This document shows, one piece after another, positions 3,460 through 33,732 of a stretch of DNA of 64,000 nt (the stretch's first letter is position 1; the number at the start of each line of letters is the position of its first letter). The notes beneath the pieces are model-generated. The model was not told the DNA's origin and made no database searches. It saw nothing but the letters and a program-made list of their open reading frames with translations. The stretch comes from an uncultured virus (IMG/VR IMGVR_UViG_3300006467_000155) (Duplodnaviria; Heunggongvirae; Uroviricota; Caudoviricetes), in IMG/VR virus record IMGVR_UViG_3300006467_000155, one strand, 5' to 3'. The position numbers and the translations under genes are program-made.

Positions 3460-5580
3460 TTAGGAGAAGATTTGAAAAGCAAGTTTCTCCTCCTTGACTG
3501 GGTTCACCGGCTCAGCAATGGTCTTCCCATGGGCCTTCATCATGGCCTTCAGGGTATTGTACGTCTTGGTGTCACCCACCACGTTCTTGATGAATTCTTC
3601 ATCCGGTATGCCGTTTCCTGAGAGCAGGTCTTTCAGTGTGCCTGCGGCCTTTAGGAGCTTCACGTTCTCCGGGACTTTAAGGGTACTGACTTGCACCGTA
3701 CCCGGGAGCAGGGCCACCACTTCTCTGCCGGCTTCTCCCAGCAAGGTCATGTGGTGGTTGATCCAGTCCCGTTCCTCTTTGGTCGGGTTCTTACCCAACA
3801 TCTGAATCATCAACCTGTCTTCGGCATCCAGATTTGAAAAGGGGCCATCAAACTCGACATACAGGGTGCCAGTCACCTTCTCACCGAGGGCCCGCAACTC
3901 CTTCACAGGGTCTTCATTGAAGGTTCCTGTGCCAAGCCTCAGGCAGTAGTCCTTGGTCACCAGCAGTAGCCCTTCAGGTGGGTGGGCGTCCCCGCAGAGC
4001 AGTGACCCTGAGCCTTCTGTCAGAAGGTGAGCAGCATGGTAATTAACTTCTCCGGGTATCACTTCCTTGGCCCCAATCCAGACATTACCGGTGGAGCCAT
4101 CAATGGTGATCAGGTCACCTGACTGCACCTGTGTTCCGTCCCCCATGATCAGGGTTCCGTTGACAATGGCCAGTTCAGTGCACCCAACAACACACACCTT
4201 GTCCATGCCCCGGGCAACAACTGCCGCATGGCTGGTCAGGCCCCCGGTCTGGGTCAATATACCAACAGAGAGGTTCATAGCAACAATGTCATCAGGGGTG
4301 GTTTCTTTCCCAACCAGAATAGCCGGGTGACCCTCCTCCGAATTGATCTGCTTCACCTGATATTCCGTGAAGGCCACTCTGCCGGTAACAACCCCACCAC
4401 CAGCGGCAATACCGGTAGCCTGTGGCTTTCCTGCAGAGTCCTTGTTGATCGCGGGGGTCTTCAAAGCCAAGTACTGGGCCACAGTCACCCGGGTCAGAGC
4501 TTCCTCGGTGGTCAATACTCCCTCGCTCACCATGTCAGAGGCAATCCGGAAGGCCGCCTTGGCAGACCGTTTCCCGTTCCGACATTGGAGGATGTAGAGC
4601 TTGCCGGCTTGCACCGTGAACTCCACGTCTTGCATGTCCTTGTAGTACTCCTCCAACCGCATGGTGTGATCACAAAGTTCTTGGTAGGCCTCGGGGTTCC
4701 ACTTGTTCATCTGGTCGAGCGGGTCCGGGGTCCGGATGCCGGCCACTACGTCCTCACCCTGAGCGTTCACAAGGAACTCCCCTGTTATTACAGGGTCACC
4801 ATTGCTTGGGTTCCGGGAGAACAACACGCCAGTACAGGACTTGTCATTGAGGTTGCCGAATACCATGGACTGGATGTTGACCGCAGTGCCCCACTCATCG
4901 GGGTAGCCGTGCATTTCCCGGTAGGCTTTGGCCCGGTCACAGTTCCATGACTCGAACACCGCCGTGATCGCCCATTCCAACTGCTCAATAAAGGTGTCCG
5001 GGAATTCCGTGCTATGGGTCTGATAGACGATCTTGTAGCGCCCTATCAGGGTGTCTAGCTGGGCCACGGAAAGCTCATGATCATGGGTGACCTCGGCTGT
5101 TTTCTTCACTTCCCCCAAGGCACCTTCAAATTCTTCTTTAGGGATACCAAACACCACGTCACCCATCATTTGCATGAGGCGGCGATAGGAATCCAGTGCG
5201 GCCCGTTTACCAATGCGTTCCGCCCACTCAGGCAGTGACTCCGAAGTCAAGCCCACGTTCAATATGGTGTCCATCATACCCGGCATGGATACCCGGGCAC
5301 CCGAGCGAACACTAACCAGTGGGAAGTAGCCAAAGTGCTCCTTCAGGTCATTCAAGTGAATGTAGACTTCGTTCTTCAGCAGGTCTGTGACAACATCGTC
5401 ACCCTTACCAGAGTGCAGGTATTCATTGCAGACTTCCGTGGTGATCGTAAAGCCCGGGGGGATCGGTAGGTTCAGGTTGGCCATCTCTGCAAGGTTGGCA
5501 CCTTTGCCACCCAGCAGTTCACGCATTTCTGCGTTGCCTTCTGTTCCGAGCCCGGGGCCAAATGTGTAGGTTTTCTTCAT
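3460..5580 (-). CDS. ppdK: Pyruvate,phosphate dikinase-like protein (ATP-grasp + phospho-His domain, atypical short C-terminus)
   Basis: LLGGKGANLAEM, LVSVRSGARVSMPGMMDT, NAQGEDVVAGIRTP, QDVEFT, GGLTSHAAVVARG; likely start MKKTY at 5580. Confidence 0.9.
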   Translation of the reverse strand: MKKTYTFGPGLGTEGNAEMRELLGGKGANLAEMANLNLPIPPGFTITTEVCNEYLHSGKGDDVVTDLLKNEVYIHLNDLKEHFGYFPLVSVRSGARVSMPGMMDTILNVGLTSESLPEWAERIGKRAALDSYRRLMQMMGDVVFGIPKEEFEGALGEVKKTAEVTHDHELSVAQLDTLIGRYKIVYQTHSTEFPDTFIEQLEWAITAVFESWNCDRAKAYREMHGYPDEWGTAVNIQSMVFGNLNDKSCTGVLFSRNPSNGDPVITGEFLVNAQGEDVVAGIRTPDPLDQMNKWNPEAYQELCDHTMRLEEYYKDMQDVEFTVQAGKLYILQCRNGKRSAKAAFRIASDMVSEGVLTTEEALTRVTVAQYLALKTPAINKDSAGKPQATGIAAGGGVVTGRVAFTEYQVKQINSEEGHPAILVGKETTPDDIVAMNLSVGILTQTGGLTSHAAVVARGMDKVCVVGCTELAIVNGTLIMGDGTQVQSGDLITIDGSTGNVWIGAKEVIPGEVNYHAAHLLTEGSGSLLCGDAHPPEGLLLVTKDYCLRLGTGTFNEDPVKELRALGEKVTGTLYVEFDGPFSNLDAEDRLMIQMLGKNPTKEERDWINHHMTLLGEAGREVVALLPGTVQVSTLKVPENVKLLKAAGTLKDLLSGNGIPDEEFIKNVVGDTKTYNTLKAMMKAHGKTIAEPVNPVKEEKLAFQIFS

Positions 5581-5611
5581 CTTCCCCTCCGTGAATTTTT
5601 GGTGCAGTTCT

Positions 5612-5640
5612 AGTATCTCGCACCCCGGTACGTTTGTCAA
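5612..5640 (-). promoter_or_regulatory. sigma70-like promoter P2
   Basis: TTGACA-N17-GATACT upstream of the ppdK-like gene; no adjacent palindrome. Confidence 0.8.
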
Positions 5641-9532: not shown

Positions 9533-11092
9533 TCATAAGTCAACATAGAGCTTGTTGGTCGTAACTACCACACTACGACCTTCGGTTAAAACTTCCAAAC
9601 TTTTTACCGGCCCGAGTACTGCCGGCTCCCCCGGGAATAGAGCAATCGCCATGTAATAGGTTGGCTCCATTACCAAAGACTGTAGCGCAAGCTGAGCATT
9701 TTGCGAGAGCGCCAGACGAGAAAGTTCTGGTGCAAGGTCGATCACCCCCGTACTCAGTTTGTGCGTTACTCCCATGGAAACCCGGGACACCTTGGGCTCC
9801 ACGACTACCGACTCACAGGACAAAGAGTGCTCCTGCACTACTGCAGCCGATGAGACATTTACCGATACAACCAGATTTTCAGTTTCAAGAATCTGCTGAG
9901 CACCCTGCCCCAAAGTCAGATCATTGACGGTCGGTGTGACATTAATGTCACTGGCGTCAAGTTCATGGGTCTGAGTCAGTGTTAGCCCAACAAACTGCGG
10001 TTCTACCTGAAGGCTCCCGGCCTCCAACAGGTGGTCTACCTGCAGGGTCACCACCGACAGGTCCGGCTCCATGACCAAGCCTTCCGCTGTGACTTGATGC
10101 TCCTGCACCATCACCGCGCCAGAAGTGGTCGGGACCATCCGTATGGAGGCTGGCACTATGGTATCCGTGACTATCTCCACGAGAGTCGGAGTGCTTACCA
10201 TGGGTTGCATCTGCAGACTGGCAACAGCGCCCTCGTGGGTCTGTCCAAGGGCAAGGTCGGTCACTGTCGGGGTTACCTGCAGTGACTCGCTTTCCAGTGC
10301 CGAGGTGTGAACCACGGATGCGGTGGATACCTCGGGCTCCATAGCCATGGATCGGGTATCAAGTACCTGTGTCTGGCTAAGGGTCAAACCCGAGACTTCC
10401 GGGACCACCTCAAGCGGTGCCGGCTGCATACTTCCCTGCTGCTCCACCTCGACACCAGACAGGGTGCCTTCCATGGCCAGAGAGTCTGTTGCCAGCCCAT
10501 GGGTCTGCACTGCCAAAGCGGTGGATACGGTAGGGGTAACCTGAAGGCTGCTGGCATCAAGAGCCTGAGTTTGGTTCAAGGTAAGGCCAGATACCTTGGC
10601 TTCCTGTACCAGTGATTCCGACACCATGCTGTGGTTCTGGGTAACCGCCACCCCAGATACCGTTGGGGTCATCTGCAGGGATTCTGACTCCACCTCGTGC
10701 GTGTTGGTCGCACTAATACCGGTGAGTGTCGGGGTCAGCTGAACCGACTGGGTATCAAGGCTATGAGCCTGTGACGCAGCCGCCTCAGACAGGGTTGGAG
10801 TAACCTGAATACTATCGGTTTCCAAAGCATGGGTCTGGCTCAGGCTCACACCGCTCACGGTGCCTTCCATCACCAAGCTATTGGTATTCAGGTTGGCCGT
10901 AGCCGAGATAGTGGTGAATGACTCCCACGCAGACCAAGCTGAGACGTTGGTTCCGTCATCCTCCTGAACCCGGAATTCATAGTCAGTCAGTTGGGTCAGC
11001 CCGGACAGGTTGTAAAACTCGTCCGTAATGTTCTCTACAAGAACCTCGTTCCCAACGTCACCAAGCTCCCGCCACTCAAGATTATAGGCCAT
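9533..11092 (-). CDS. Fibre protein: N-terminal partial FN3 domain + ~19 tandem 22-aa repeats
   Basis: ATG at 11092 (TAATG overlap); repeats such as QTHALETDSIQVTPTLSEAAAS / QAHSLDTQSVQLTPTLTGISAT. Confidence 0.75.
   Translation of the reverse strand: MAYNLEWRELGDVGNEVLVENITDEFYNLSGLTQLTDYEFRVQEDDGTNVSAWSAWESFTTISATANLNTNSLVMEGTVSGVSLSQTHALETDSIQVTPTLSEAAASQAHSLDTQSVQLTPTLTGISATNTHEVESESLQMTPTVSGVAVTQNHSMVSESLVQEAKVSGLTLNQTQALDASSLQVTPTVSTALAVQTHGLATDSLAMEGTLSGVEVEQQGSMQPAPLEVVPEVSGLTLSQTQVLDTRSMAMEPEVSTASVVHTSALESESLQVTPTVTDLALGQTHEGAVASLQMQPMVSTPTLVEIVTDTIVPASIRMVPTTSGAVMVQEHQVTAEGLVMEPDLSVVTLQVDHLLEAGSLQVEPQFVGLTLTQTHELDASDINVTPTVNDLTLGQGAQQILETENLVVSVNVSSAAVVQEHSLSCESVVVEPKVSRVSMGVTHKLSTGVIDLAPELSRLALSQNAQLALQSLVMEPTYYMAIALFPGEPAVLGPVKSLEVLTEGRSVVVTTNKLYVDL
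9937..9950. repeat. 14-bp palindrome copy (exact, intragenic)
   Basis: Encodes DINVT. Confidence 0.95.
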
Positions 11093-12570
11093 TATCCTTG
11101 CTCCCAAGTCAGAGTCACAGAAGTCGGTTGCAGGTTCTCAAACCCGAGATTTACGGGGGTATTCACGCCAACCGGGATAAGCCAACCAGTGTCATTGTTT
11201 GCAATCAAATCTAGGTGGATGGATTCAAGTTGTTCTTCAGTCAGAACACCCTTACCCATCTCGGCATAGTAAATCTGACCCTGCACGTTCCGGTTGAGGC
11301 TTCCCCGGTTACCAAGTGACAAAATACGGTTGGTGTTGTTAATCCGACCCAAAACATCTGACGAACCATAGTTTGAACCAGCAATCGACCGGTATTGCCC
11401 GTCAGTCATGACACGGATGCGCGACTCAGAGCCAAGTTCATCCATGTCAATCTGGATAACAAGGGTGTGCGGATCAGTGTCTCCGGGGTTGTAGTAAAAA
11501 GAGGCCGTGTGCCCCGTACCCCCAGATTCGTTATCAAAACGAACAACCCACAGGTCGTTTTCTTCCTTAACAATCGAAATGTCCGTATTGCCGCTGGAAG
11601 TACCAATGGCGAATAGGCGCATACCATTTGGATGCCCGACTATGTTAGCCAGCACCATAGCGAACCAGAAGGTTTTTTCCCCATCGAGTTCCGCACCAAG
11701 GTTACCGTTTGCAACGATATTATCGAGTCTGGCTATACCGCTATTGGAAACACTCGGACTATTAGTGAAATCAAGCCCTTTGCCGGAGGCAATAGAAGTC
11801 CACTCCAACGCATTGTTATAGTCCAACGTCAGATCATTACCATTACCGGTATCATCGGCAGTGGTGGTTGGGGCAGTGCCGCTCGATGCCTCACTTAGCA
11901 GGAACCGACAAAGGCTTGTAGCGTTACTTGCGTTTACCGAGCGAGCCCTTCCAGCCCCGACGCCAGTCGTGAGGCTGAATACAGCGACTTCAACCTGAGA
12001 GTTACGACCAGTCTGCAAGAAGAATCCGATTGCTCCGGGGTCACTTATAGAAAATTCACCCCAACTATTAGAACCATTAGGTTCTTCTGACCCTTCAGGC
12101 CACGCCTTGAAATATAAGGTGGTGCTGTCGGTTTCAACCCCACCTGCGCCACGAAGTCTTACCCAAAACCATCCAGTGCCTTGGTATTGCCCTACATTCA
12201 CTGCGCGTGACGTTTCCGCACCGGCTTGAAATATTCGGCCTTGCTCTTTATCTGGGTCCGGGCTCATACCATAGACAAGCCCTGTTACATCACTCTCCAT
12301 TCGAGCGGCCACATTAGCGTAACCGTCGAGATCACGAACCAAGGCGAGAAGTTCAAAATCTGCCCTGCCTGCATCCGCATCAACAGGGTCATACTTGACC
12401 ATACCGTAATTGGCAGGGTTACCAGTTCCGTTGATCCGTAGGCATTTCCCATGCCCGTTGGCGGTATTGTCTACTATGGTGATAGACCTCCCGGTACCAA
12501 ACAAAACAGACCAATCTGCAGGGGACTGCCCCACAGTTTCATCAGAAAAATCGGTGAAATACCCCGCCAT
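11092..12570 (-). CDS. Putative receptor-binding/lectin-like (ConA/LamG-type) fibre protein
   Basis: Beta-sandwich-like sequence (WFWVRLR, LSLGNRG...GQIYYA); ends in the first strands of an FN3 domain. Confidence 0.6.
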   Translation of the reverse strand: MAGYFTDFSDETVGQSPADWSVLFGTGRSITIVDNTANGHGKCLRINGTGNPANYGMVKYDPVDADAGRADFELLALVRDLDGYANVAARMESDVTGLVYGMSPDPDKEQGRIFQAGAETSRAVNVGQYQGTGWFWVRLRGAGGVETDSTTLYFKAWPEGSEEPNGSNSWGEFSISDPGAIGFFLQTGRNSQVEVAVFSLTTGVGAGRARSVNASNATSLCRFLLSEASSGTAPTTTADDTGNGNDLTLDYNNALEWTSIASGKGLDFTNSPSVSNSGIARLDNIVANGNLGAELDGEKTFWFAMVLANIVGHPNGMRLFAIGTSSGNTDISIVKEENDLWVVRFDNESGGTGHTASFYYNPGDTDPHTLVIQIDMDELGSESRIRVMTDGQYRSIAGSNYGSSDVLGRINNTNRILSLGNRGSLNRNVQGQIYYAEMGKGVLTEEQLESIHLDLIANNDTGWLIPVGVNTPVNLGFENLQPTSVTLTWEQG

Positions 12571-12667: not shown

Positions 12668-13027
12668 TTAATTCGGAGAAAGTTGGAGTACCGGGGCTTC
12701 CGGAGGGGCCACCTTCTTTCCCACTACAGGGTCAGACCAGACAGAGTAAACCCCATCAAGATCGGAGACTCGGATTCGGAAGGTGTATTCCTGATAGTCC
12801 GCCAGAATACTGTCAATGTTGTATTCGGTAGCACTTGCCGGGGCCGTGATTGGGCTCGGACATTCATCGCCGTTGAGGTCGCCAACACAAATCTGGTACT
12901 GGCCGAGCTGAGTATCGGGGAGTGGGGTGCCATCAACCCGTGTGGTTGGGGCTTCCCAAGTCAGGGAGGTTGCCATAACAATGGCCGGCAACATGGCCGC
13001 TACAAACAAGGTAAGAAAGCGAAACAT
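12668..13027 (-). CDS. Exported FN3-domain protein with Sec signal peptide
   Basis: MFRFLTLFVAAMLPAIVMA then TSLTWEAP...YTFRIRVSD.DG.YS.WS. Confidence 0.7.
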   Translation of the reverse strand: MFRFLTLFVAAMLPAIVMATSLTWEAPTTRVDGTPLPDTQLGQYQICVGDLNGDECPSPITAPASATEYNIDSILADYQEYTFRIRVSDLDGVYSVWSDPVVGKKVAPPEAPVLQLSPN

Positions 13028-14601: not shown

Positions 14602-17600
14602 TTACCCTCCGGTATCCACCACGATAAATTGAACTGATTGCCCTACCGGAATCTGGACCTCATAGACCAAGGCCTCGACAGTGTAGGTTATGGTCGCCAA
14701 CCCGTACCCATAGTTCACGCTGGTATCTGAAGCATACACCCTCGGTGTCCGCGCTTCACCTCCAACCGCCCCGAGTGATGCAGAGTGCCATTCCACCACA
14801 TCTATACTAACTGCGGGGTACTCAAGGGATGCCTCCCCTTCGATGAACTCCACTTCTTGGGTTTCCTGACGAGACTGAACCCCAATGCGGGTAAGGAACA
14901 CGGCCCCGTTATTGATGGTGGGCTCGACTGTGATCTTGTCTCTCCAAGGCTGTGGGTAGACGAACAATTTTCCCCGATCATTGGCATCGTCAGATTTAAC
15001 AAGCTCAATGGTATCGGACAATGAACTTGGTAGCTCCCTGATGCGAATCCTGTTGATAACTTCCTCACCAGAAAGGAATTCTTGCTGGCTGAGGTTGTCG
15101 TCTTCATCTGTGAGAACAAAGTCAGCCCCTTCCACGGTCATGGCGTTCATAGCCACTGGATACAGATAGTTCACCACGAGGCTCCCATCCGGCTCGGCTT
15201 CCAGAACACCACCACAAGCCGAAACCACCCGCTCAACAGCATCCGCCTTGGTCACCCCACGAACAGCGAACCGGTAGGCCGGGATGTTCCAATCCAGAAT
15301 GTTCCAGACTACGGGTCGGCCAATAATGTCCTCCACCAAATCACGAGCACTGATAGCAGCTTCCTGTACCCGGGTAACCTGTGATGAGTTCAGGCTTAGC
15401 TCTCCGACAACAGGGCTCAATAGACCCAAGCTCATTGAATTTCTAACTTGGTCCGCCCGGTTCAATGACTTGGTGTCCACCTCAAGAACATAGGTTTCTC
15501 CGGCCATGTCCACAATCACTGAATCGCCTTTCTTGGCTCGAATATAATCAGCCACCTCACTCAGGCTCACGGTGCCTCTCCAACCCAACTCACCTTCATC
15601 CTCGGATACCTGCAAAGTATCAAACTCAACAGAAACCCCGGACAGGGTTACCGTGACTGAGTTAGAAGAAATGATGGGGCTATCGTCAACCAAGGTGTAA
15701 AAACTGCTATGCCTCTCGGCAACGCGCTCGGTGACATTAATGTCAAACCGGGTTTCAAGCTGAGCAGTCACGGTCACCAGATTCCCATATTTCGTCTCAT
15801 GGTGCCGTCCTGCCACCTGCCTAAGAACCCAACTACTTTCATGCTGAGCTTTCACAACAACAGAAGGGTCGTATTGGGTCTCGTGCCATTTAGACACACT
15901 TGGGGCATCACTATACAGTGTCTCGATCTGGGCCCTTACCCGAGGCGCATCCCCGTACTCTGACTGATTTTGTGCCAATACATTGGGGCTATCCCCGAAC
16001 AGAGTTTCATGCTGCCATGACAGGAACACCGACTGGCTGTAACTAGTTTCATGGAGCACGGTCAGGGAATTCATTAACAGGGTTTCGTGCTGGGCTGCGA
16101 CCAACAATCCCATCTTGGTCTCATGCTGGGCCGCCACCTTGATAGCATAGCCAGTCTCGTGCTTCGCCTTCACTTTCACATAGGCATCGGTATCCCACAC
16201 TGCGTTGTGGAATTCCATTATTGCCGAGTCCACCCTGTAGGTCTGGTTAAACTCTCGCTCTTTGATCATTGGTTCACCTCCATACAGGGCCAAGTCAATA
16301 TACTTCATCACTGCGTAGGCAACTGTGGCATCTTCATAGCCCTCCACTCCGCTACCCTGTACCAGAAATTCTAACCCCACAATGCCGTAGAGGTCTGATC
16401 CTTCTGGGCGCTCAATAGTGTAATTCCCATAGTGCCCCGGGGAGTTGCGCCAAAAATCAAACGCCTGTTCTGGGGTTATGTACGGGTAGTCTTCCGGATT
16501 GCTACTGATAACAGCAGCAAACATGATGTTCTCAGATGCCCATGAGTAGGGGGTGGCCAGCTTTTTAATCCGGCTGTAAACGGTCTCATAGCCTGCAGGG
16601 AACCCTGAAGATTCGTGGGCATAAATGTCGGTCTCTGCCATGTTACGGGCATGTCGAGTAGCAAGCTCCGGGAAGTTACCATACCAGTTCTTCAAGAAGC
16701 TGGTTCTTCCTTGGGCTGCTCGATCCGCATTCATCAGGTCCAGAATCTTAGGTATCCAATCCCACTGAGGGAGAGCCCACATCTGGTCAAATGAACCGCT
16801 TACTTCCCCAAGGCCCCACCTCTGGTTGAATTCTTTTTCCACCAGCTCCTTGGCTTCTATCTGCCATTCCTGATTGAACTCCCTCTCGACCAACTCAGTA
16901 TCCTGAGTGATCAGCTCCCATTCCATCTGGAATATCCGTTCATCCATGGGCACATCCAATACCCATAACTGATTGAACTCTTTTTCCGTTTTGATGGTTT
17001 GCCCGAGTCTGACAATAAACGGTATTTCTGTTATCGGACTGGCCGCCCCAACCCTCAAGTTAAATCCAACCTCGTGAAATATCGAATCTGCTATTGCCCC
17101 CCGTGGAACCACGACAGGCTGGATATCCATGTTCACCTCAGTTTCGGTGTTTAGCGTGACACTGGCACTGCCTCGGATAGGGTACTGGATTTCTGGGCTC
17201 TGGTTTCTGGTGGTTCTTTCCTGCCGTACTGAAGGCAGATTGAATGAAGGGAACCATCGTCCATCCAATTGATACACCGGAGCCTGCCCGCCAGTGTAGG
17301 TGGTTTCATGAAACGAAGTCGCCTTAGCCACGCCATACTGGCTTTCCAGAAAGTTCTGTGCTTTAGCAATGCCGTACAGGGTTTCATGCTGGCTGTTAAG
17401 GCTGTTCAGATAGGAATACGTTGTCTCGTGCTGCTTCAGTACAGGGAGCGGGGCCCCAACGTCCGGTAGCCGGGTGGTGTTGCTATATATGCCCTCTATC
17501 TCGGCCTGTGTCATCGGGCGGGTAACAATGCCCAAGTCCCACCAATCCGCTACGGCACTGCCACTGTTGTTACCCAGAGTTTGCAACCCACCGGACCCGC

Positions 17601-18081
17601 CAACGACAAGATCGGTGCCCGGTGAAGAGTCTACAAACGCGCCATCACACCAAAGCTCTTTGGTAGTTCCATCACACTGAACAACAAAGTGGTGCCATGT
17701 GCCGGGGGCAAAAAACCCGGCGTTCTGGGTCTCGCCATTCACCATGTTGAACTGGTTGTAGTGAAAATTTGACCCTGCATCACCACCATAGAAATAGAAA
17801 CCGGTGTTTATGTTTCCATTAGTGAGCATGAAGGTCCATTCGGTACCCGAGGCCGGGTTATTGGGTCTTCGTAACCAGAAGGCTACGGCCCATTCAGACA
17901 GGGTGTAAACTGGGCCGCCAAACCTAGCCCTAGTTGACCCCCCATTACACCGCATGGTATTGCCGCCCACCGGGGAAGCACCTACAGGAACAAAGAATCC
18001 AGTGGGGGTTAAAGTCAGATCACCTACGGACGCTGTAAAACCTGTTTCCAGAGGAAAATGCGCCAGTAGTGGAAGGGTCAT
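14602..18081 (-). CDS. Large tail-tip/hub protein: LamG-like N-domain, HETxY and EFNQxW repeats, internal CAP/SCP domain, hub-like C-terminus
   Basis: WAVAFW/WHHFVV...DG (LamG); RHARNMAE...SENI...FWRNSPGHYGN (CAP). Confidence 0.75.
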   Translation of the reverse strand: MTLPLLAHFPLETGFTASVGDLTLTPTGFFVPVGASPVGGNTMRCNGGSTRARFGGPVYTLSEWAVAFWLRRPNNPASGTEWTFMLTNGNINTGFYFYGGDAGSNFHYNQFNMVNGETQNAGFFAPGTWHHFVVQCDGTTKELWCDGAFVDSSPGTDLVVGGSGGLQTLGNNSGSAVADWWDLGIVTRPMTQAEIEGIYSNTTRLPDVGAPLPVLKQHETTYSYLNSLNSQHETLYGIAKAQNFLESQYGVAKATSFHETTYTGGQAPVYQLDGRWFPSFNLPSVRQERTTRNQSPEIQYPIRGSASVTLNTETEVNMDIQPVVVPRGAIADSIFHEVGFNLRVGAASPITEIPFIVRLGQTIKTEKEFNQLWVLDVPMDERIFQMEWELITQDTELVEREFNQEWQIEAKELVEKEFNQRWGLGEVSGSFDQMWALPQWDWIPKILDLMNADRAAQGRTSFLKNWYGNFPELATRHARNMAETDIYAHESSGFPAGYETVYSRIKKLATPYSWASENIMFAAVISSNPEDYPYITPEQAFDFWRNSPGHYGNYTIERPEGSDLYGIVGLEFLVQGSGVEGYEDATVAYAVMKYIDLALYGGEPMIKEREFNQTYRVDSAIMEFHNAVWDTDAYVKVKAKHETGYAIKVAAQHETKMGLLVAAQHETLLMNSLTVLHETSYSQSVFLSWQHETLFGDSPNVLAQNQSEYGDAPRVRAQIETLYSDAPSVSKWHETQYDPSVVVKAQHESSWVLRQVAGRHHETKYGNLVTVTAQLETRFDINVTERVAERHSSFYTLVDDSPIISSNSVTVTLSGVSVEFDTLQVSEDEGELGWRGTVSLSEVADYIRAKKGDSVIVDMAGETYVLEVDTKSLNRADQVRNSMSLGLLSPVVGELSLNSSQVTRVQEAAISARDLVEDIIGRPVVWNILDWNIPAYRFAVRGVTKADAVERVVSACGGVLEAEPDGSLVVNYLYPVAMNAMTVEGADFVLTDEDDNLSQQEFLSGEEVINRIRIRELPSSLSDTIELVKSDDANDRGKLFVYPQPWRDKITVEPTINNGAVFLTRIGVQSRQETQEVEFIEGEASLEYPAVSIDVVEWHSASLGAVGGEARTPRVYASDTSVNYGYGLATITYTVEALVYEVQIPVGQSVQFIVVDTGG
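15732..15745. repeat. 14-bp palindrome copy (exact, intragenic)
   Basis: Encodes DINVT. Confidence 0.95.
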
Positions 18082-29797: not shown

Positions 29798-30178
29798 CTA
29801 CACAGTCATCAGTTTAATCGTCACCAGAAACCAGTCATCCGGTAACGGTTGAGCCCTGCTTATCAAAGGTTTGTACTCAAATGCTGGGGCCTCCTGATGC
29901 CGGAACATTACCCGCATTAACTCCCCATTCAATGTTAGATCATACTCGCCACCCACGCTGTCTGCCAACGACTTCACCTGCAGAACGTCGGTGTACTGCA
30001 TCCACCCTTGGTCTCTCAAACTCTCAAGCGTGATAGGCATCCCCTTCACCAAGGCCCCCGGGTAGACCACGAGCTTCCCTGACAGGGTTCTCCGGGTGGA
30101 TTGAACCACCGGGGAATACTCGCCCCGGTCGGACCACATAATGCCTGAGGGCAGGGTAACGCCGGCTAGTGTGCTCAT
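29798..30178 (-). CDS. Distal tail protein-like
   Basis: Directly after the tape measure; W.D...PVVQS.RRTLSG.LVV...G.PITL. Confidence 0.65.
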   Translation of the reverse strand: MSTLAGVTLPSGIMWSDRGEYSPVVQSTRRTLSGKLVVYPGALVKGMPITLESLRDQGWMQYTDVLQVKSLADSVGGEYDLTLNGELMRVMFRHQEAPAFEYKPLISRAQPLPDDWFLVTIKLMTV

Positions 30179-33100
30179 CAGGAACCCCTCTTAATCCGTT
30201 GCAGTGACTTGGCCAGCTTTCTGGTCTCCTCTCGCTCCCCAAACAATCGGATGGGGCCTGAGCCCAAATCCAATTTCAGCTCTACCGTATCACCCCCCTC
30301 ACTTCCGGACGAGATATTAGCCGGTCCTTGAGCAATCGAACCACCGGTAGCAAAACCCGGCAGGGAGGGTAGCTGAAGGTTGTTCAGGGCGTACATGAAG
30401 TCCAGCCCGTACTTTTTCACAGCGGCATTCCGCATCATGAACTCATCCCGGGAAGCAGCGATCAGGATGGAATCGCTCGTGGGAGTCCCCGGGCCTACAA
30501 TCCGACCCCCACCTGCAAACCCGGGAACCGTGATTTGACCCCCACCAGCGAAACCTTGGGGCCGGTTCAACTCATTGTAGCGGATGCGAACCACATACTC
30601 CTTGTTCAGGGTCTCCTCGATCTGGTTGATCTTGCTGTCCAGTTCTTCAGACTGGGGCTTGATCGTAACCAACTGATCCTGCCCCAGCTTCTCGAAGATC
30701 GCATTCACTTCGCTTTCGGTGTCACTAACCTGTAGCCCAATGGCAAACTTCCGCTCACGAAGACTGGCTTCAACGGAATCAAAGATACCCGTCAGAGCGT
30801 CCAGATCAACCTCCACTGGAAGCTCCACTTTCTGCTCGGCCAACTTGCTGATTTCCGCCCGTACAGCCGACAGGTTCTCCCGTAGAGTGGTGATTTCTTC
30901 CTCGGACGACTCTCGTGTTTCCTCAGCCAATTGCTTACGGCGCTCAAGGGCAGTGATGATGCTATCCGTTGCTTCCTTGGACACGCGGGTAGCCTGAGCA
31001 ATGGTCTGCTCCTCGTTCAGATACTCCCGGCCAGAGTCGAACCTTACGGATTGGAGTTCGGCAAGTTGGTCCGCCAGTTCTCGTTGGCGGCGTCCGGCTT
31101 CTTCCAGTGCTGTAAGGTCTCCAATCTCCTCTGCCTGCGCTGCATCCTCTCGCGCTTTCGAGATTTCTTTTTGCAGTTGGACATATTGCTGGTACTCCGA
31201 CAGTTCCTTTCCTTGGATGGAACGAAGCTGCTCGGCCCCAGCTTTGCGCTCGTCCGCAATCTGGCTTTCCAAGCTACGAATATCCTGTGCCGCTTGGCGC
31301 TGGCGGGCAACCGCTGCATCCAGACTGCTGGCAAGCTCGGCTTCATAGGATTGCTGGATTTGCAGGCGATCATCGGCAAGCTGCAAGGCCACGTCTCGAA
31401 GCTCGTTAGCCCTTTCCTTCTCATTGGCTATGGTCCTCTCCGCAATCCGGCGCTTTTCCAAGGCCTCTTGCTCGGCAATAGCAGTCAGCTCGTCAGCTCG
31501 TTGGCGTGCGGTGTCCACGGTCAAGGCCCTGATCTGCTCCTCAATTCGTGCAGCATCCTGATCACTGCCCCCAAGCACCTGAATGTCAGCCAGCTTGGAT
31601 TTCAACTGGTCGATCTGGCCGTTCACCTGATTGAATTTGATCTGGTTCAGAGCCGCCATGTTATCCGCCAGAAGCTCGGCAGATTCCTTGGTGAACTGGA
31701 ACTGCTTGGCCAACCCAGTAGATTCGGAACCGTCTGCATCCAGAGCTTTCTTCCGAGCCGCCTCGACCTTCTCCAACTGCTCGAACAGCAAGTCGAACTG
31801 CTCCTGTAGCTGCTGGCCCCGGGCCGCATCCACACTGTTACCCACGTCCAGACCCAGTACCGACCGCTTGGCCTGAGCCTCAGCAAAGGCTTCCCGGGCG
31901 TCCTGAATCACCTTGATCTGCTCACGAAGTCTCTCGCTGGCCTGATTCAGGGAATCGACGCTCTGATCTGCCAGTGCCCGTTCCGTTCCTTCCCGGGTGG
32001 TATTGAAGTCGTCAATCACGGCCCGAGCCGACCCGAAGGCGATCTGGAAATTGCGGAGGTCTTCTTCCTGCTCAGCAAAGGCCTCGTAGCCCTCAAACAG
32101 TTTCATTATGCCCCAGACAGCAGCGAGTGCCGGCACCAACCGAATAGCACCGGCCACCATTCCTTTCAGCGAGGTGGTGATTGCCCCGGTGGCTGTGGCC
32201 ATGGCCCGGGAGGAACCTGCAGTCGCCCCCATCAGAGTGGCGTTACGGGCCAACAGTCCGTTCTGGGTAGCCAGTGCGGCGTTCTCTCCCTGCAAGGCGG
32301 TGATCAGAGTCAGCTTAGCTTTCCTCAGGGTCACCACGGCCAGAGTCACGGAGCCGACAACGGCCAGAAGACTGGCGAACACCACGACAGCAATAGCAAC
32401 CACCTTGCTGAAAGTCTCATTCTCGTCAACGAACTCCGACACTCCCCTTGCCAGATCGCCCAGCAGGCCCACCAGATCAGAGACCAACGGCAATACCAAC
32501 TGGCCAATATCCCGGAATGCGGTTGCCAGTTCTTGCCCTGCAATAGAGAGTTGCTGAAGTGGCTCAGCCTGAATCTTCTCAAGTGCAGTCTGGGCAGACC
32601 CGGCGCTGTTTTCGACGCTCTGCAGGCCCTCGTTGAAGAACTGCATCTCATTGGCCGTGATGGTGGTGAAACCCTGCAGGGCCTCGACACTTCCCAGCAA
32701 CCGGCTTACCGCTTCCTGACTTCCCCCGGACGCTTCTTCGACCACAGCCAGTGCAGCCCCAAGACCTTGGGTTGCCAGTACGGTCTCCGCGCTCTCCCCG
32801 GCAATGTCTTGGAAAGCCAGTGCCAGTTCATCAGTCGGCTTGGCCAGAGAAACCAGCAGTTGCCGTAGGCCTGTGAATGCTTGGTTGGTTCGTACACCCT
32901 GCTTGGTGGAAGCCACAATGGAGGCCAGAACCTCGTCATAGCTCACCCCGAAGCTGGCAGCTATCGGGGCCGCTTGTGCAATATCCCGGGACAGTTCTGC
33001 GACTGTGGTCTTACCGCCTTCAACGGTTTTGAACAGCTTATCCACTACGTCTTCAGCGGTGCCCGCCGAGTCCCCAAACGAGTTGAGGATGGTGGTCACA

Positions 33101-33732
33101 CCGTCAGCGGCAAGGCCAATGTCCGCTACGCCAGCAGTCGCCAGCTTGGCTGATGCTGCCAATACTCGGTTGGCTTCATCCCCCGCTTGGGCCCCGGAGG
33201 AGATAATGTCGTACAGGGCCTTGGCGCTTCTTGCAGTGTCCACCCCGTAGGCAGTGGATACCTCGGTGACCGCCGCCGCCAATTCCTGATTGGAGACGAC
33301 CGTACTGTCAACGAGTGTGCTGATTTCCGCGATCTGCAGACCGAACTCTGCCGCACTCTTGGAGGCCGTACCAAAGAAGGTCAGCACGGCAGCCCCGGAA
33401 GCGGCCAGTAGGACAGCCGCCTCTTGGACTTCACCAAGGGTGTCTCTCAGTTTACGTAGTTCTTCTTCCGCGTCCCGGGCGTCTTCCTCAAGGCCTTCTG
33501 GCCCCTCAGTGTCTTCCAGCCCCTTGGCGGCTTTCTTTGCGTCTTCAGTGGCGTCCGCCAACTCCCCCATGGAATCGGCGGCTTTATCAGCGGACTTATC
33601 AACCTCAGAAAAAGAACCACCCTCAATGCCGGTCAGTTCTTTCTCAAGGGCTCGGACGCTCCTAACGATTTCGTCAATGGCATCCGTGGCTTCCTGCCTA
33701 GCTTTGATGAGGATTTCGATATTGTCAGCCAT
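30178..33732 (-). CDS. Tail tape measure protein (TP901-type core)
   Basis: 1184 aa, Ala-rich helical; LYDIISSG, GKTTVAEL, C-terminal GFAGGG..GPGT.TSDSI. Confidence 0.92.
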   Translation of the reverse strand: MADNIEILIKARQEATDAIDEIVRSVRALEKELTGIEGGSFSEVDKSADKAADSMGELADATEDAKKAAKGLEDTEGPEGLEEDARDAEEELRKLRDTLGEVQEAAVLLAASGAAVLTFFGTASKSAAEFGLQIAEISTLVDSTVVSNQELAAAVTEVSTAYGVDTARSAKALYDIISSGAQAGDEANRVLAASAKLATAGVADIGLAADGVTTILNSFGDSAGTAEDVVDKLFKTVEGGKTTVAELSRDIAQAAPIAASFGVSYDEVLASIVASTKQGVRTNQAFTGLRQLLVSLAKPTDELALAFQDIAGESAETVLATQGLGAALAVVEEASGGSQEAVSRLLGSVEALQGFTTITANEMQFFNEGLQSVENSAGSAQTALEKIQAEPLQQLSIAGQELATAFRDIGQLVLPLVSDLVGLLGDLARGVSEFVDENETFSKVVAIAVVVFASLLAVVGSVTLAVVTLRKAKLTLITALQGENAALATQNGLLARNATLMGATAGSSRAMATATGAITTSLKGMVAGAIRLVPALAAVWGIMKLFEGYEAFAEQEEDLRNFQIAFGSARAVIDDFNTTREGTERALADQSVDSLNQASERLREQIKVIQDAREAFAEAQAKRSVLGLDVGNSVDAARGQQLQEQFDLLFEQLEKVEAARKKALDADGSESTGLAKQFQFTKESAELLADNMAALNQIKFNQVNGQIDQLKSKLADIQVLGGSDQDAARIEEQIRALTVDTARQRADELTAIAEQEALEKRRIAERTIANEKERANELRDVALQLADDRLQIQQSYEAELASSLDAAVARQRQAAQDIRSLESQIADERKAGAEQLRSIQGKELSEYQQYVQLQKEISKAREDAAQAEEIGDLTALEEAGRRQRELADQLAELQSVRFDSGREYLNEEQTIAQATRVSKEATDSIITALERRKQLAEETRESSEEEITTLRENLSAVRAEISKLAEQKVELPVEVDLDALTGIFDSVEASLRERKFAIGLQVSDTESEVNAIFEKLGQDQLVTIKPQSEELDSKINQIEETLNKEYVVRIRYNELNRPQGFAGGGQITVPGFAGGGRIVGPGTPTSDSILIAASRDEFMMRNAAVKKYGLDFMYALNNLQLPSLPGFATGGSIAQGPANISSGSEGGDTVELKLDLGSGPIRLFGEREETRKLAKSLQRIKRGS

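Follow-up and report, generated by a model that had tools for sequence, protein, structure and literature searches.

The two genes described here, designated A and B, are adjacent on the minus strand of a 64,000-nucleotide stretch of DNA from an uncultured virus of the class Caudoviricetes (IMG/VR record IMGVR_UViG_3300006467_000155), and this whole stretch is referred to as the window. A PHROG scan of 27 products places the locus within the tail module of a tailed phage. Gene A encodes a lectin-like protein and gene B a rod of short repeats, while the end of the first product and the beginning of the second resemble two parts of a single fibronectin type III (FN3) domain, called the plug and the socket respectively. 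We consider it likely, from sequence comparison and from models of the separate chains, that the two products join as a non-covalent plug and socket, which would rebuild one FN3 domain from two chains.

Organization of genes A and B

The final codons of gene A read ACT TGG GAG CAA GGA TAA, and the stop codon shares one base with the start codon of gene B, which lies in the -1 frame relative to gene A. A GGGAG Shine-Dalgarno (SD) sequence is located 8 nt from this ATG. Both the TAATG overlap and the GGGAG had been named in the original prediction, made from the letters of the window alone, and both were found again when the minus strand was re-read. The gene B product begins with MAYNLEWRE, and its opening stretch is given as MAYNLEWRELGD...YNLSGLTQLTDYEFRVQEDDGTNVSAWSAWESFTT and also as MAYNLEWRELGD...DYEFRVQEDDGTNVSAWSAWESFTT. 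An in-frame TTG occurs upstream of the ATG at position 11107; most relatives have CTG at that position, and the ATG is taken as the start of gene B because the TTG is not kept as a start codon. A stop-start overlap with the SD sequence inside the upstream gene is the arrangement of a translationally coupled pair, and we infer that genes A and B are coupled cistrons. An SD-like GGGAG or GGGAT is present in 62 of the 63 unique canonical junctions of related loci (described below). The wobble positions of the plug are similarly restricted, with GAG in 58, GAT in four, GAA in none and CAA in 61 of the 63, and this fixed choice of GAG and CAA suggests a constraint at the nucleotide level as a ribosome-binding site (RBS).

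Among 1.84 billion representatives, the sole exact copy of gene A was itself, and 255 relatives were found at E ≤ 0.001. Searches of Pfam, PHROGs, NCBIfam and PDB sequences gave no match for A as a whole. The N-terminal domain is probably a jelly-roll and was poorly modelled by AlphaFold2 (AF2), with a predicted local distance difference test (pLDDT) of 27–67 in ten-residue blocks; a domain of this type together with the plug makes up the whole A protein in most relatives. The second domain is LamG-like and was modelled with a pLDDT of 85–98 across residues ~221–460. Its best Foldseek match was the carbohydrate-binding domain 4 of the arabinanase AbnA (5hon_A, E 4e-8, TMt 0.64) and further matches were other lectin-like jelly-rolls, including the lectin-like binding subdomain of clostridial neurotoxins, a match at fold level only with 10–16% identity. 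The last ~30 residues of A, which include the plug, are coil in the AF2 model of A (pLDDT 55–66), and a hidden Markov model (HMM) of the plug found a single plug in the window. The protein P0002 (505 aa, 48% identity to the LamG-like domain of A) combines this domain with closely similar 22-aa repeats in a single chain that lacks an intervening FN3.

The socket of gene B is followed by a rod of tandem repeats whose autocorrelation peaks at 22 (100), 44 (86) and 11 (55) against a background of ~17–42. The repeats matched no family in Pfam, PHROG or NCBIfam, the PDB sequence search was also empty, and no named family was assigned to them in the protein Atlas (best feature score 0.89). The model that the Atlas provides aligns to a leucine-rich repeat (LRR) solenoid with a TM by query of 0.35, no more than a lead. 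The same repeat (SLQVTPTVS...QxH) was also observed in the rods of relatives and in single-chain proteins composed of LamG and repeats (P0002, L011 and L056). The C-termini of the B proteins from 30 loci differ from one another and are always short and strand-like, often with internal repeats (...EPTITGTITVS, ...GSFYREVEINGSFKRSISI); such motifs may represent a second docking element.

Features of genes A and B and of the surrounding region, with positions in the window
Feature	Position	Strand	Description or evidence
Gene A	11092..12570	minus	492 aa + TAA stop; lectin-like protein with C-terminal FN3 plug; open reading frame (ORF) list
A residues 1-215, N-terminal domain (MAGYFTDF... type)	11926..12570	minus	separate homolog set over 1-~215
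A residues 217-470, ConA-like/LamG jelly-roll	11161..11922	minus	homologs with 30-48% identity over 217-~470
Plug, A residues 471-492, TPVNLGFENLQPTSVTLTWEQG, predicted FN3 strands A-B	11095..11160	minus	plug HMM, E 8e-11; C-terminus of A, followed directly by the TAA
GGGAG Shine-Dalgarno of gene B	11101..11105	minus	inside W-E codons of plug
TAATG stop-start overlap	11090..11094	minus	A stop 11094..11092, B start 11092..11090
Gene B	9533..11092	minus	519 aa + stop; socket, repeat rod, C-terminal end; ORF list
Socket, B residues 1-62, predicted FN3 strands C, C', E, F, G	10907..11092	minus	Pfam fn3, PDB profile, AF2
~19 tandem 22-aa repeats (xLxxxSLQVTPTVSxxxxxQxH), 11-aa sub-period	9641..10894	minus	autocorrelation
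B C-terminal 35 residues, ...SVVVTTNKLYVDL	9536..9640	minus	non-repeat, strand-like
1159-aa tail protein	14602..18081	minus	before genes A and B
Tape-measure gene	30178..33732	minus	PHROG scan; then tail and baseplate-type genes
119-aa ORF	12668..13027	minus	directly upstream of gene A
726-aa ORF	3460..5640	minus	PHROG 18609

FN3 signatures in the two products and in related loci

The FN3 domain is a seven-strand beta-sandwich (sheets ABE and C'CFG) with a Trp in strand B, a Tyr in strand C, a Leu before strand F and a Tyr corner in strand F. Residues 3–56 of B align with positions 32–80 of the 84-position Pfam fn3 profile (PF00041) at 18.4 bits, which is under the 25-bit cut-off when B is taken alone. 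Because the match begins at profile position 32, strands A and B, corresponding to the first ~31 positions, are missing from the gene B product, and the N-terminal socket pieces of relatives likewise always match from positions 29–32. The 45-aa tail of A alone had no Pfam match, as expected for a plug of 22 residues. In an intact relative, the locus L081, the sequence ...LPTNLRTINLQATSVRMAWDAPPGGVSYNLEWRD... runs uninterrupted in a single frame, and the fn3 match covers positions 3–80 of 84 with 40 bits (E 4.7e-10). A PDB search with a profile of 60 socket pieces matched solved FN3 chains only from approximately residue 31–46, such as residues 44–88 of 100 in FN3con (4u3h_A).

For structural modelling, A and residues 1–66 of B were folded by AF2 as separate chains. 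An alignment of the L081 domain with the fragments misaligned the plug (...ARLNWEQ) on the socket (...YNLEWR) and was not used for folding. With an alignment of the pieces from relatives, B(1–66) was modelled at a pLDDT of 94.1 with strands at residues 2–9, 17–22, 37–45 and 57–60, and the strand-E stretch was not assigned as a strand and was left unpaired. The model superimposes on solved FN3 domains with Z-scores of 8–9 and a root-mean-square deviation of 1.2–2.5 A over 60–66 residues, beginning at approximately residue 30 of single-domain entries; the best superpositions were with Tencon (3tes_A, residues 30..93 of 94, Z 8.0) and 4m6a_B (residues 30..92, Z 8.5). The plug looks like strands A and B, with its Trp invariant in all 63 unique canonical junctions and its Pro invariant as well, and residues Y3, L32 and Y38 of the socket are invariant. 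Profile coverage of the domain is thus found over the two chains, and its strands and motifs are found from the separate halves. On these grounds, plug and socket together amount to exactly one canonical FN3 domain cut at the B-C loop, with each half incomplete by itself. The assignment of strands A–B to gene A and C–G to gene B that had been proposed originally is borne out by the profile positions, the superpositions and L081.

A word-based protein search with residues 1–90 of B returned six relatives, of which four start with MSYNVEWR, one is truncated at the N-terminus and one has a LamG-like domain before ...HSYNVEWR. Pattern searches gave 12 viral loci and 80 metagenome loci (the best 80 of 182 relatives), and local tblastn located a socket in 94 of 96 loci. 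In 79 of these 94 loci, an ORF ending in W-x-x-G(-x) and a stop codon terminates no more than 15 nt from the first codon of the socket, a proportion that is not an unbiased frequency since [MH] was the opening element in one metagenome pattern of the two, favouring Met-start (split) forms, and many contigs come from related sample series; the search without the [MH] pattern, on viral contigs, gave 12 loci only. Six of the remaining loci have too little upstream sequence to judge and nine are exceptions. The 79 split loci represent 68 unique DNA sequences and include four copies of the phage type of the window (L001, L004, L005 and L017), one duplicate contig (L006 = L049), and L007 and L008, in which the upstream ORF is a remnant of 13 codons. 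A check of homologs had been proposed with the original prediction, and recurrence of the same split in 79 of 94 related loci is far beyond chance.

The junctions of the 79 loci are spelled TAATG (52), TGATG (19), TAGTG with a GTG start (4), ATGA (1), a stop codon with one nucleotide before ATG (2) and an ATG 8 nt before the stop (1), so that a start codon is present in every case and the overlap is of 1 nt in 75. All 63 unique canonical junctions keep the stop (TAA 45, TGA 16 and TAG 2, the latter always with a GTG start), and the Trp, Gln and Gly of the plug are invariant among them. Over plug codons 1–18, the ratio of synonymous to non-synonymous differences is 9548/6430 in the frame of gene A, and 3574/11924 and 1661/14125 in the other frames. 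The plug is therefore under purifying selection at the protein level, as the synonymous excess is confined to the A frame and the plug is kept as a protein and not merely as an RBS.

Among cultured phages (50,697 phage records), no match was obtained by megablast of the locus or by tblastn with A or with the socket, and a search of genome contigs found just two distant, intact cellular FN3 domains in Bacteroidota metagenome-assembled genomes. The nearest record (G001) is a fragment without this region or either flank and is uninformative on swapping.

The conserved cassette, the proposed joint and its alternatives

The bodies of the A proteins that precede the plug fall into 10 clusters (64 proteins) and the bodies of the B proteins that follow the socket into 15 clusters (39 proteins). 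Nineteen A/B combinations are represented in the 31 loci with both bodies, including one A type with eight B types and one B type with four A types. Ungapped DNA identity in 32 loci is 56–85% from -90 to +180 of the start codon and falls to ~27% upstream and ~35% downstream. The FN3 cassette of ~260 bp is thus an island of conservation between re-assorting flanks, in agreement with the swappability suggested earlier. Heads found on plugs or sockets include LamG/ConA-like jelly-rolls, LRR, a GDSL esterase, a weak GH43-like match and an M14 peptidase. The same modules occur fused, as in the single chain of P0002, connected by a cis FN3, as in L081, or connected by a split FN3, as in the window.

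Most of the exceptions still combine a plug with a socket. In L011 and L091, a plug-ending ORF with the same TAATG overlap is followed by a B protein that starts M-A-I-D and contains an LRR region of ~385 aa, ...IPPSYTLEWR, the socket and 22-aa repeats; L012 is of the same type and is cut by the contig end. The locus L096 and the protein P0152 have a plug-like ORF end, then a LamG domain, then the socket. Strands A and B are present in cis in L081 and L016. In L014 (2216..5666), two consecutive ORFs have plug-like ends, ...STSVTLNWNRG and ...PRVASVNWRV, each followed by a stop, with the stop of the second in frame with the next start codon, and a subsequent M14-peptidase-like protein (Peptidase_M14, E 3.5e-14) has two internal sockets. 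The loci L018 (1057..3367) and L019 (275..2876) contain three-gene chains through two plug/socket joints. Gene 1 encodes 247 aa and ends ...ALVDWREGV; gene 2 encodes one protein with both ends, composed of a socket (MSYDIEWKE...), a jelly-roll and a plug ending ...ARLTWEQG; and gene 3 starts with a socket, MAYNLEWR in L018 and MSYNVEWR in L019, followed by repeats. Two different plug/socket pairs are thus found in one phage. Separately, the proteins P0153, P0154 and P0156 were observed to have MSYNVEWR (strand C), a LamG-like insertion of ~220 aa and then ...ITDLFYDLTGL...YEFRVQEDDG (strands E–G), which by its predicted strands amounts to a domain inserted within the socket itself.

In the proposed joint, A and B would be made as separate structural proteins from the coupled cistrons. 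The 22 C-terminal residues of A (strands A–B) would form a beta-hairpin plug that docks on the 62 N-terminal residues of B (strands C, C', E, F and G), where strand B would pair with the otherwise unpaired strand E and the Trp of the plug would fill the core; cysteines are absent. The joint would tie the lectin-like protein with two jelly-rolls to the rod of 22-aa repeats, and homologous recombination inside the ~260-bp cassette would swap either partner with products that still assemble, as the cassette is conserved and the flanks are unrelated between phages. We infer a physical association of A with B, the direction of its attachment to the virion and a role in host adhesion, and the coupling of the genes would point to a 1:1 stoichiometry. 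Strand complementation fits all of the comparative and single-chain modelling evidence.

The split may also be real and conserved without any joining of A to B. The socket would then be a self-sufficient or self-associating five-stranded unit, for example by a strand swap among copies of B, the plug would have another role, and the cassette would act as a linker for coupling and recombination. Several observations weigh on this side and against a joint. The socket alone is modelled very confidently (pLDDT 94), so the modelling does not in itself point to a need for a partner. Some sockets have no plug in cis or next to them, or stand in pairs, in L084, L092, L015 and L014, with two in tandem in the first three and a GDSL-esterase-like protein with a plug at its N-terminus upstream in L092; because of these tandem and plug-less sockets, the five-stranded unit might be stable alone or might self-pair. 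The socket gene of L007 and L008 is preceded only by the 13-codon remnant (...RFTWEQG and a stop), and the sole good plug of this complete 56.9-kb genome lies two genes upstream, where it forms the N-terminus of a LamG-like protein. The remnant ORF reads MFKPLMRFTWEQG and is followed by a GTG-start socket gene (L007 4690..4780, with the same sequence in L008). The GGGAG and CAA nucleotides are constrained as an RBS, and the sharp island of identity is as expected of a recombination linker. The bias of the [MH] pattern and the weak covariation between plug and socket also count against the proposed joint. In 65 of 67 unique pairs, an R at W-3 is accompanied by the D of Y-D-L, and only the window (T/N) and L015 (T/E) depart from this; the covariation was dropped as evidence of pairing for having too few independent changes.

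We nevertheless regard an unjoined pair as unlikely. The plug is conserved as a protein, with an excess of synonymous differences, across 10 unrelated clusters of A bodies, and plug and socket together account for exactly one FN3 domain, with strands A and B able to be supplied in cis in plug-less relatives such as L081. Strand E is left without a partner in the socket model. HMM scans also found equal numbers of plugs and sockets, one of each, in the window and in three out of four larger records (G003, G005 and the complete genome G004). In the fourth record, G002 (which contains L014), two sockets and a single plug passed the HMM threshold, and a second, divergent plug was found by eye.

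Ig-like (immunoglobulin-like) domains can be added to phage structural proteins by frameshifting, and a programmed -1 ribosomal frameshift or other recoding would produce an A-B fusion with an intact FN3, an alternative that had been raised in the original prediction. Gene B is in the -1 frame, which stays open over the 15 codons that precede the ATG, and the 96 nt after the stop fold better than shuffled sequences to a mild degree (z -1.94; 3 of 200 shuffles did equally well). No X XXY YYZ heptamer occurs among the closing codons of A, as had been remarked from the outset, and the frame relation is variable, differing in four of the 79 loci, with a stop, one nucleotide and ATG in L043 and L055, an ATG 8 nt before the stop in L080 and ATGA in L015. 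The start codon is kept in all 79 loci along with the SD-like sequence noted above, and gene callers gave proteins starting MSYNVEWR. No conserved downstream RNA structure was found in 21 relatives, the consensus having six pairs ~75 nt downstream at -3.25 kcal/mol with 0 compensatory pairs. A slippery heptamer, a fixed frame relation and a stimulatory RNA were therefore not found, and programmed frameshifting is very unlikely. In principle, a shift of this kind could also come from one altered base within the GGG of TGGGAG, whether as a 1-bp sequencing error (the further suggestion of the original prediction), an assembly error or a recent inactivating frameshift (pseudogene). This reading is effectively excluded, as the identical junction occurs in three assemblies distinct by single-nucleotide polymorphisms (the window, L001 with 1 mismatch in 6454 and L017 with 2 in 10192), the split recurs in relatives at 38–78% socket identity with varied stop codons and conserved stops in 63 of 63 unique canonical junctions, and both halves are under selection.

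Genomic context, comparison with known joints and implications

Upstream of the pair, the 1159-aa tail protein contains many short H-E-T repeats (AQHETKMG, AAQHETLL, VLHETSY) and has a weak YkwD/CAP-like match (E 5e-4). The 119-aa ORF opens with a hydrophobic stretch resembling a signal sequence (MFRFLTLFVAAMLPAIVMA), after which comes an FN3-like domain that matches PHROG 31, tail fibre J region (E 4e-4), and homologs with 29–36% identity are located upstream of the plug gene in seven other loci. Genes A and B are followed by small genes with no function assigned by the PHROG scan. The product of the 726-aa ORF matches PHROG 18609, annotated as a kinase (E 7e-168).

The BppU-BppA tripod in the baseplate of Lactococcus phage Tuc2009 is the closest solved precedent for the proposed joint. 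A 25-residue C-terminal beta-hairpin of BppU completes a beta-sheet of BppA domain 2 in a titin-like composite (mBio 2016, PMC4742702). Both systems have a C-terminal two-strand hairpin, an Ig-like domain in the product of the next gene and a non-covalent joint, here predicted, and BppA carries a carbohydrate-binding module. The completed domain of Tuc2009 is the C-terminal domain 2 of BppA, whereas the present one is N-terminal and a canonical FN3, with the cut in its B-C loop. Unlike Tuc2009, the present system has a stop-start overlap, a cassette in ~80 loci with mosaic flanks, a three-gene series and multiples with two sockets. Close homology to BppU and BppA is unlikely because tblastn of A and of the socket against the phage records gave no match.

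Several other systems complete an Ig-like fold in trans. In chaperone-usher pili, another chain donates the strand missing from an incomplete Ig-like subunit, giving very stable non-covalent fibres; in pilins the C-terminal G strand is the one that is absent, and a single N-terminal strand takes its place with the help of a periplasmic chaperone and an usher. In contrast, the missing strands here are the N-terminal strands A and B, which would be supplied by a C-terminal tail in the setting of a phage virion, and the PHROG scan of the 27 neighbouring products found no chaperone- or usher-like families. The joint is similar to donor-strand complementation in its way of working and is not a member of that class. 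The PDB entry 4m6a, titled 'N-terminal beta-strand swapping in a consensus derived alternative scaffold', indicates that N-terminal FN3 strands can be supplied in trans, although scaffolds of this type are engineered or crystallographic and the present split is natural and gene-encoded. In SpyTag/SpyCatcher, the strand of an Ig-like domain is supplied in trans and a covalent isopeptide bond is formed. Full-text searches of the literature outside subscription journals, aimed at split FN3 domains and at strand complementation or donor strands in the fibres of phages, found no account of this joint or of phage fibre genes that divide an FN3 at the B-C loop.

Beyond the single joint of A and B, we tentatively suggest, at somewhat less than even confidence, that a large group of uncultured phages could share the split FN3 as a general plug-and-socket code, encoded in their genes, for the assembly of chains and branched hubs and for module shuffling. 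The divergent pairs WEQG-stop with YNVEWR...YEFRVQE and W[RS]EGV-stop with Y[DN]IE...YE[YF]RV might be orthogonal under this proposal. Chains of fixed order could be built as in the three genes of L018 and L019, and branched hubs could arise from two sockets as in L014, L015, L084 and L092. The cassette could in turn be a recombination point for lectins, LRR, SGNH esterases, GH43-like and M14 peptidase-like heads, and different rods, which could pass between phages with assembly preserved.

Gene callers and curators should not repair such junctions as frameshifts. If the proposed reading is true, ORFs ending in ...W-E-Q-G and a stop beside ORFs starting with M-S/A-Y-N-V/L-E-W-R would be annotated as partners and not as broken genes, and the two halves would provide a small non-covalent protein-ligation pair for engineering. 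If the halves bind, they would form a natural two-strand split-domain connector, which would explain how receptor-binding or enzymatic heads and rods recombine at one 260-bp cassette with assembly kept, and this would bear on the evolution of host range by module exchange.

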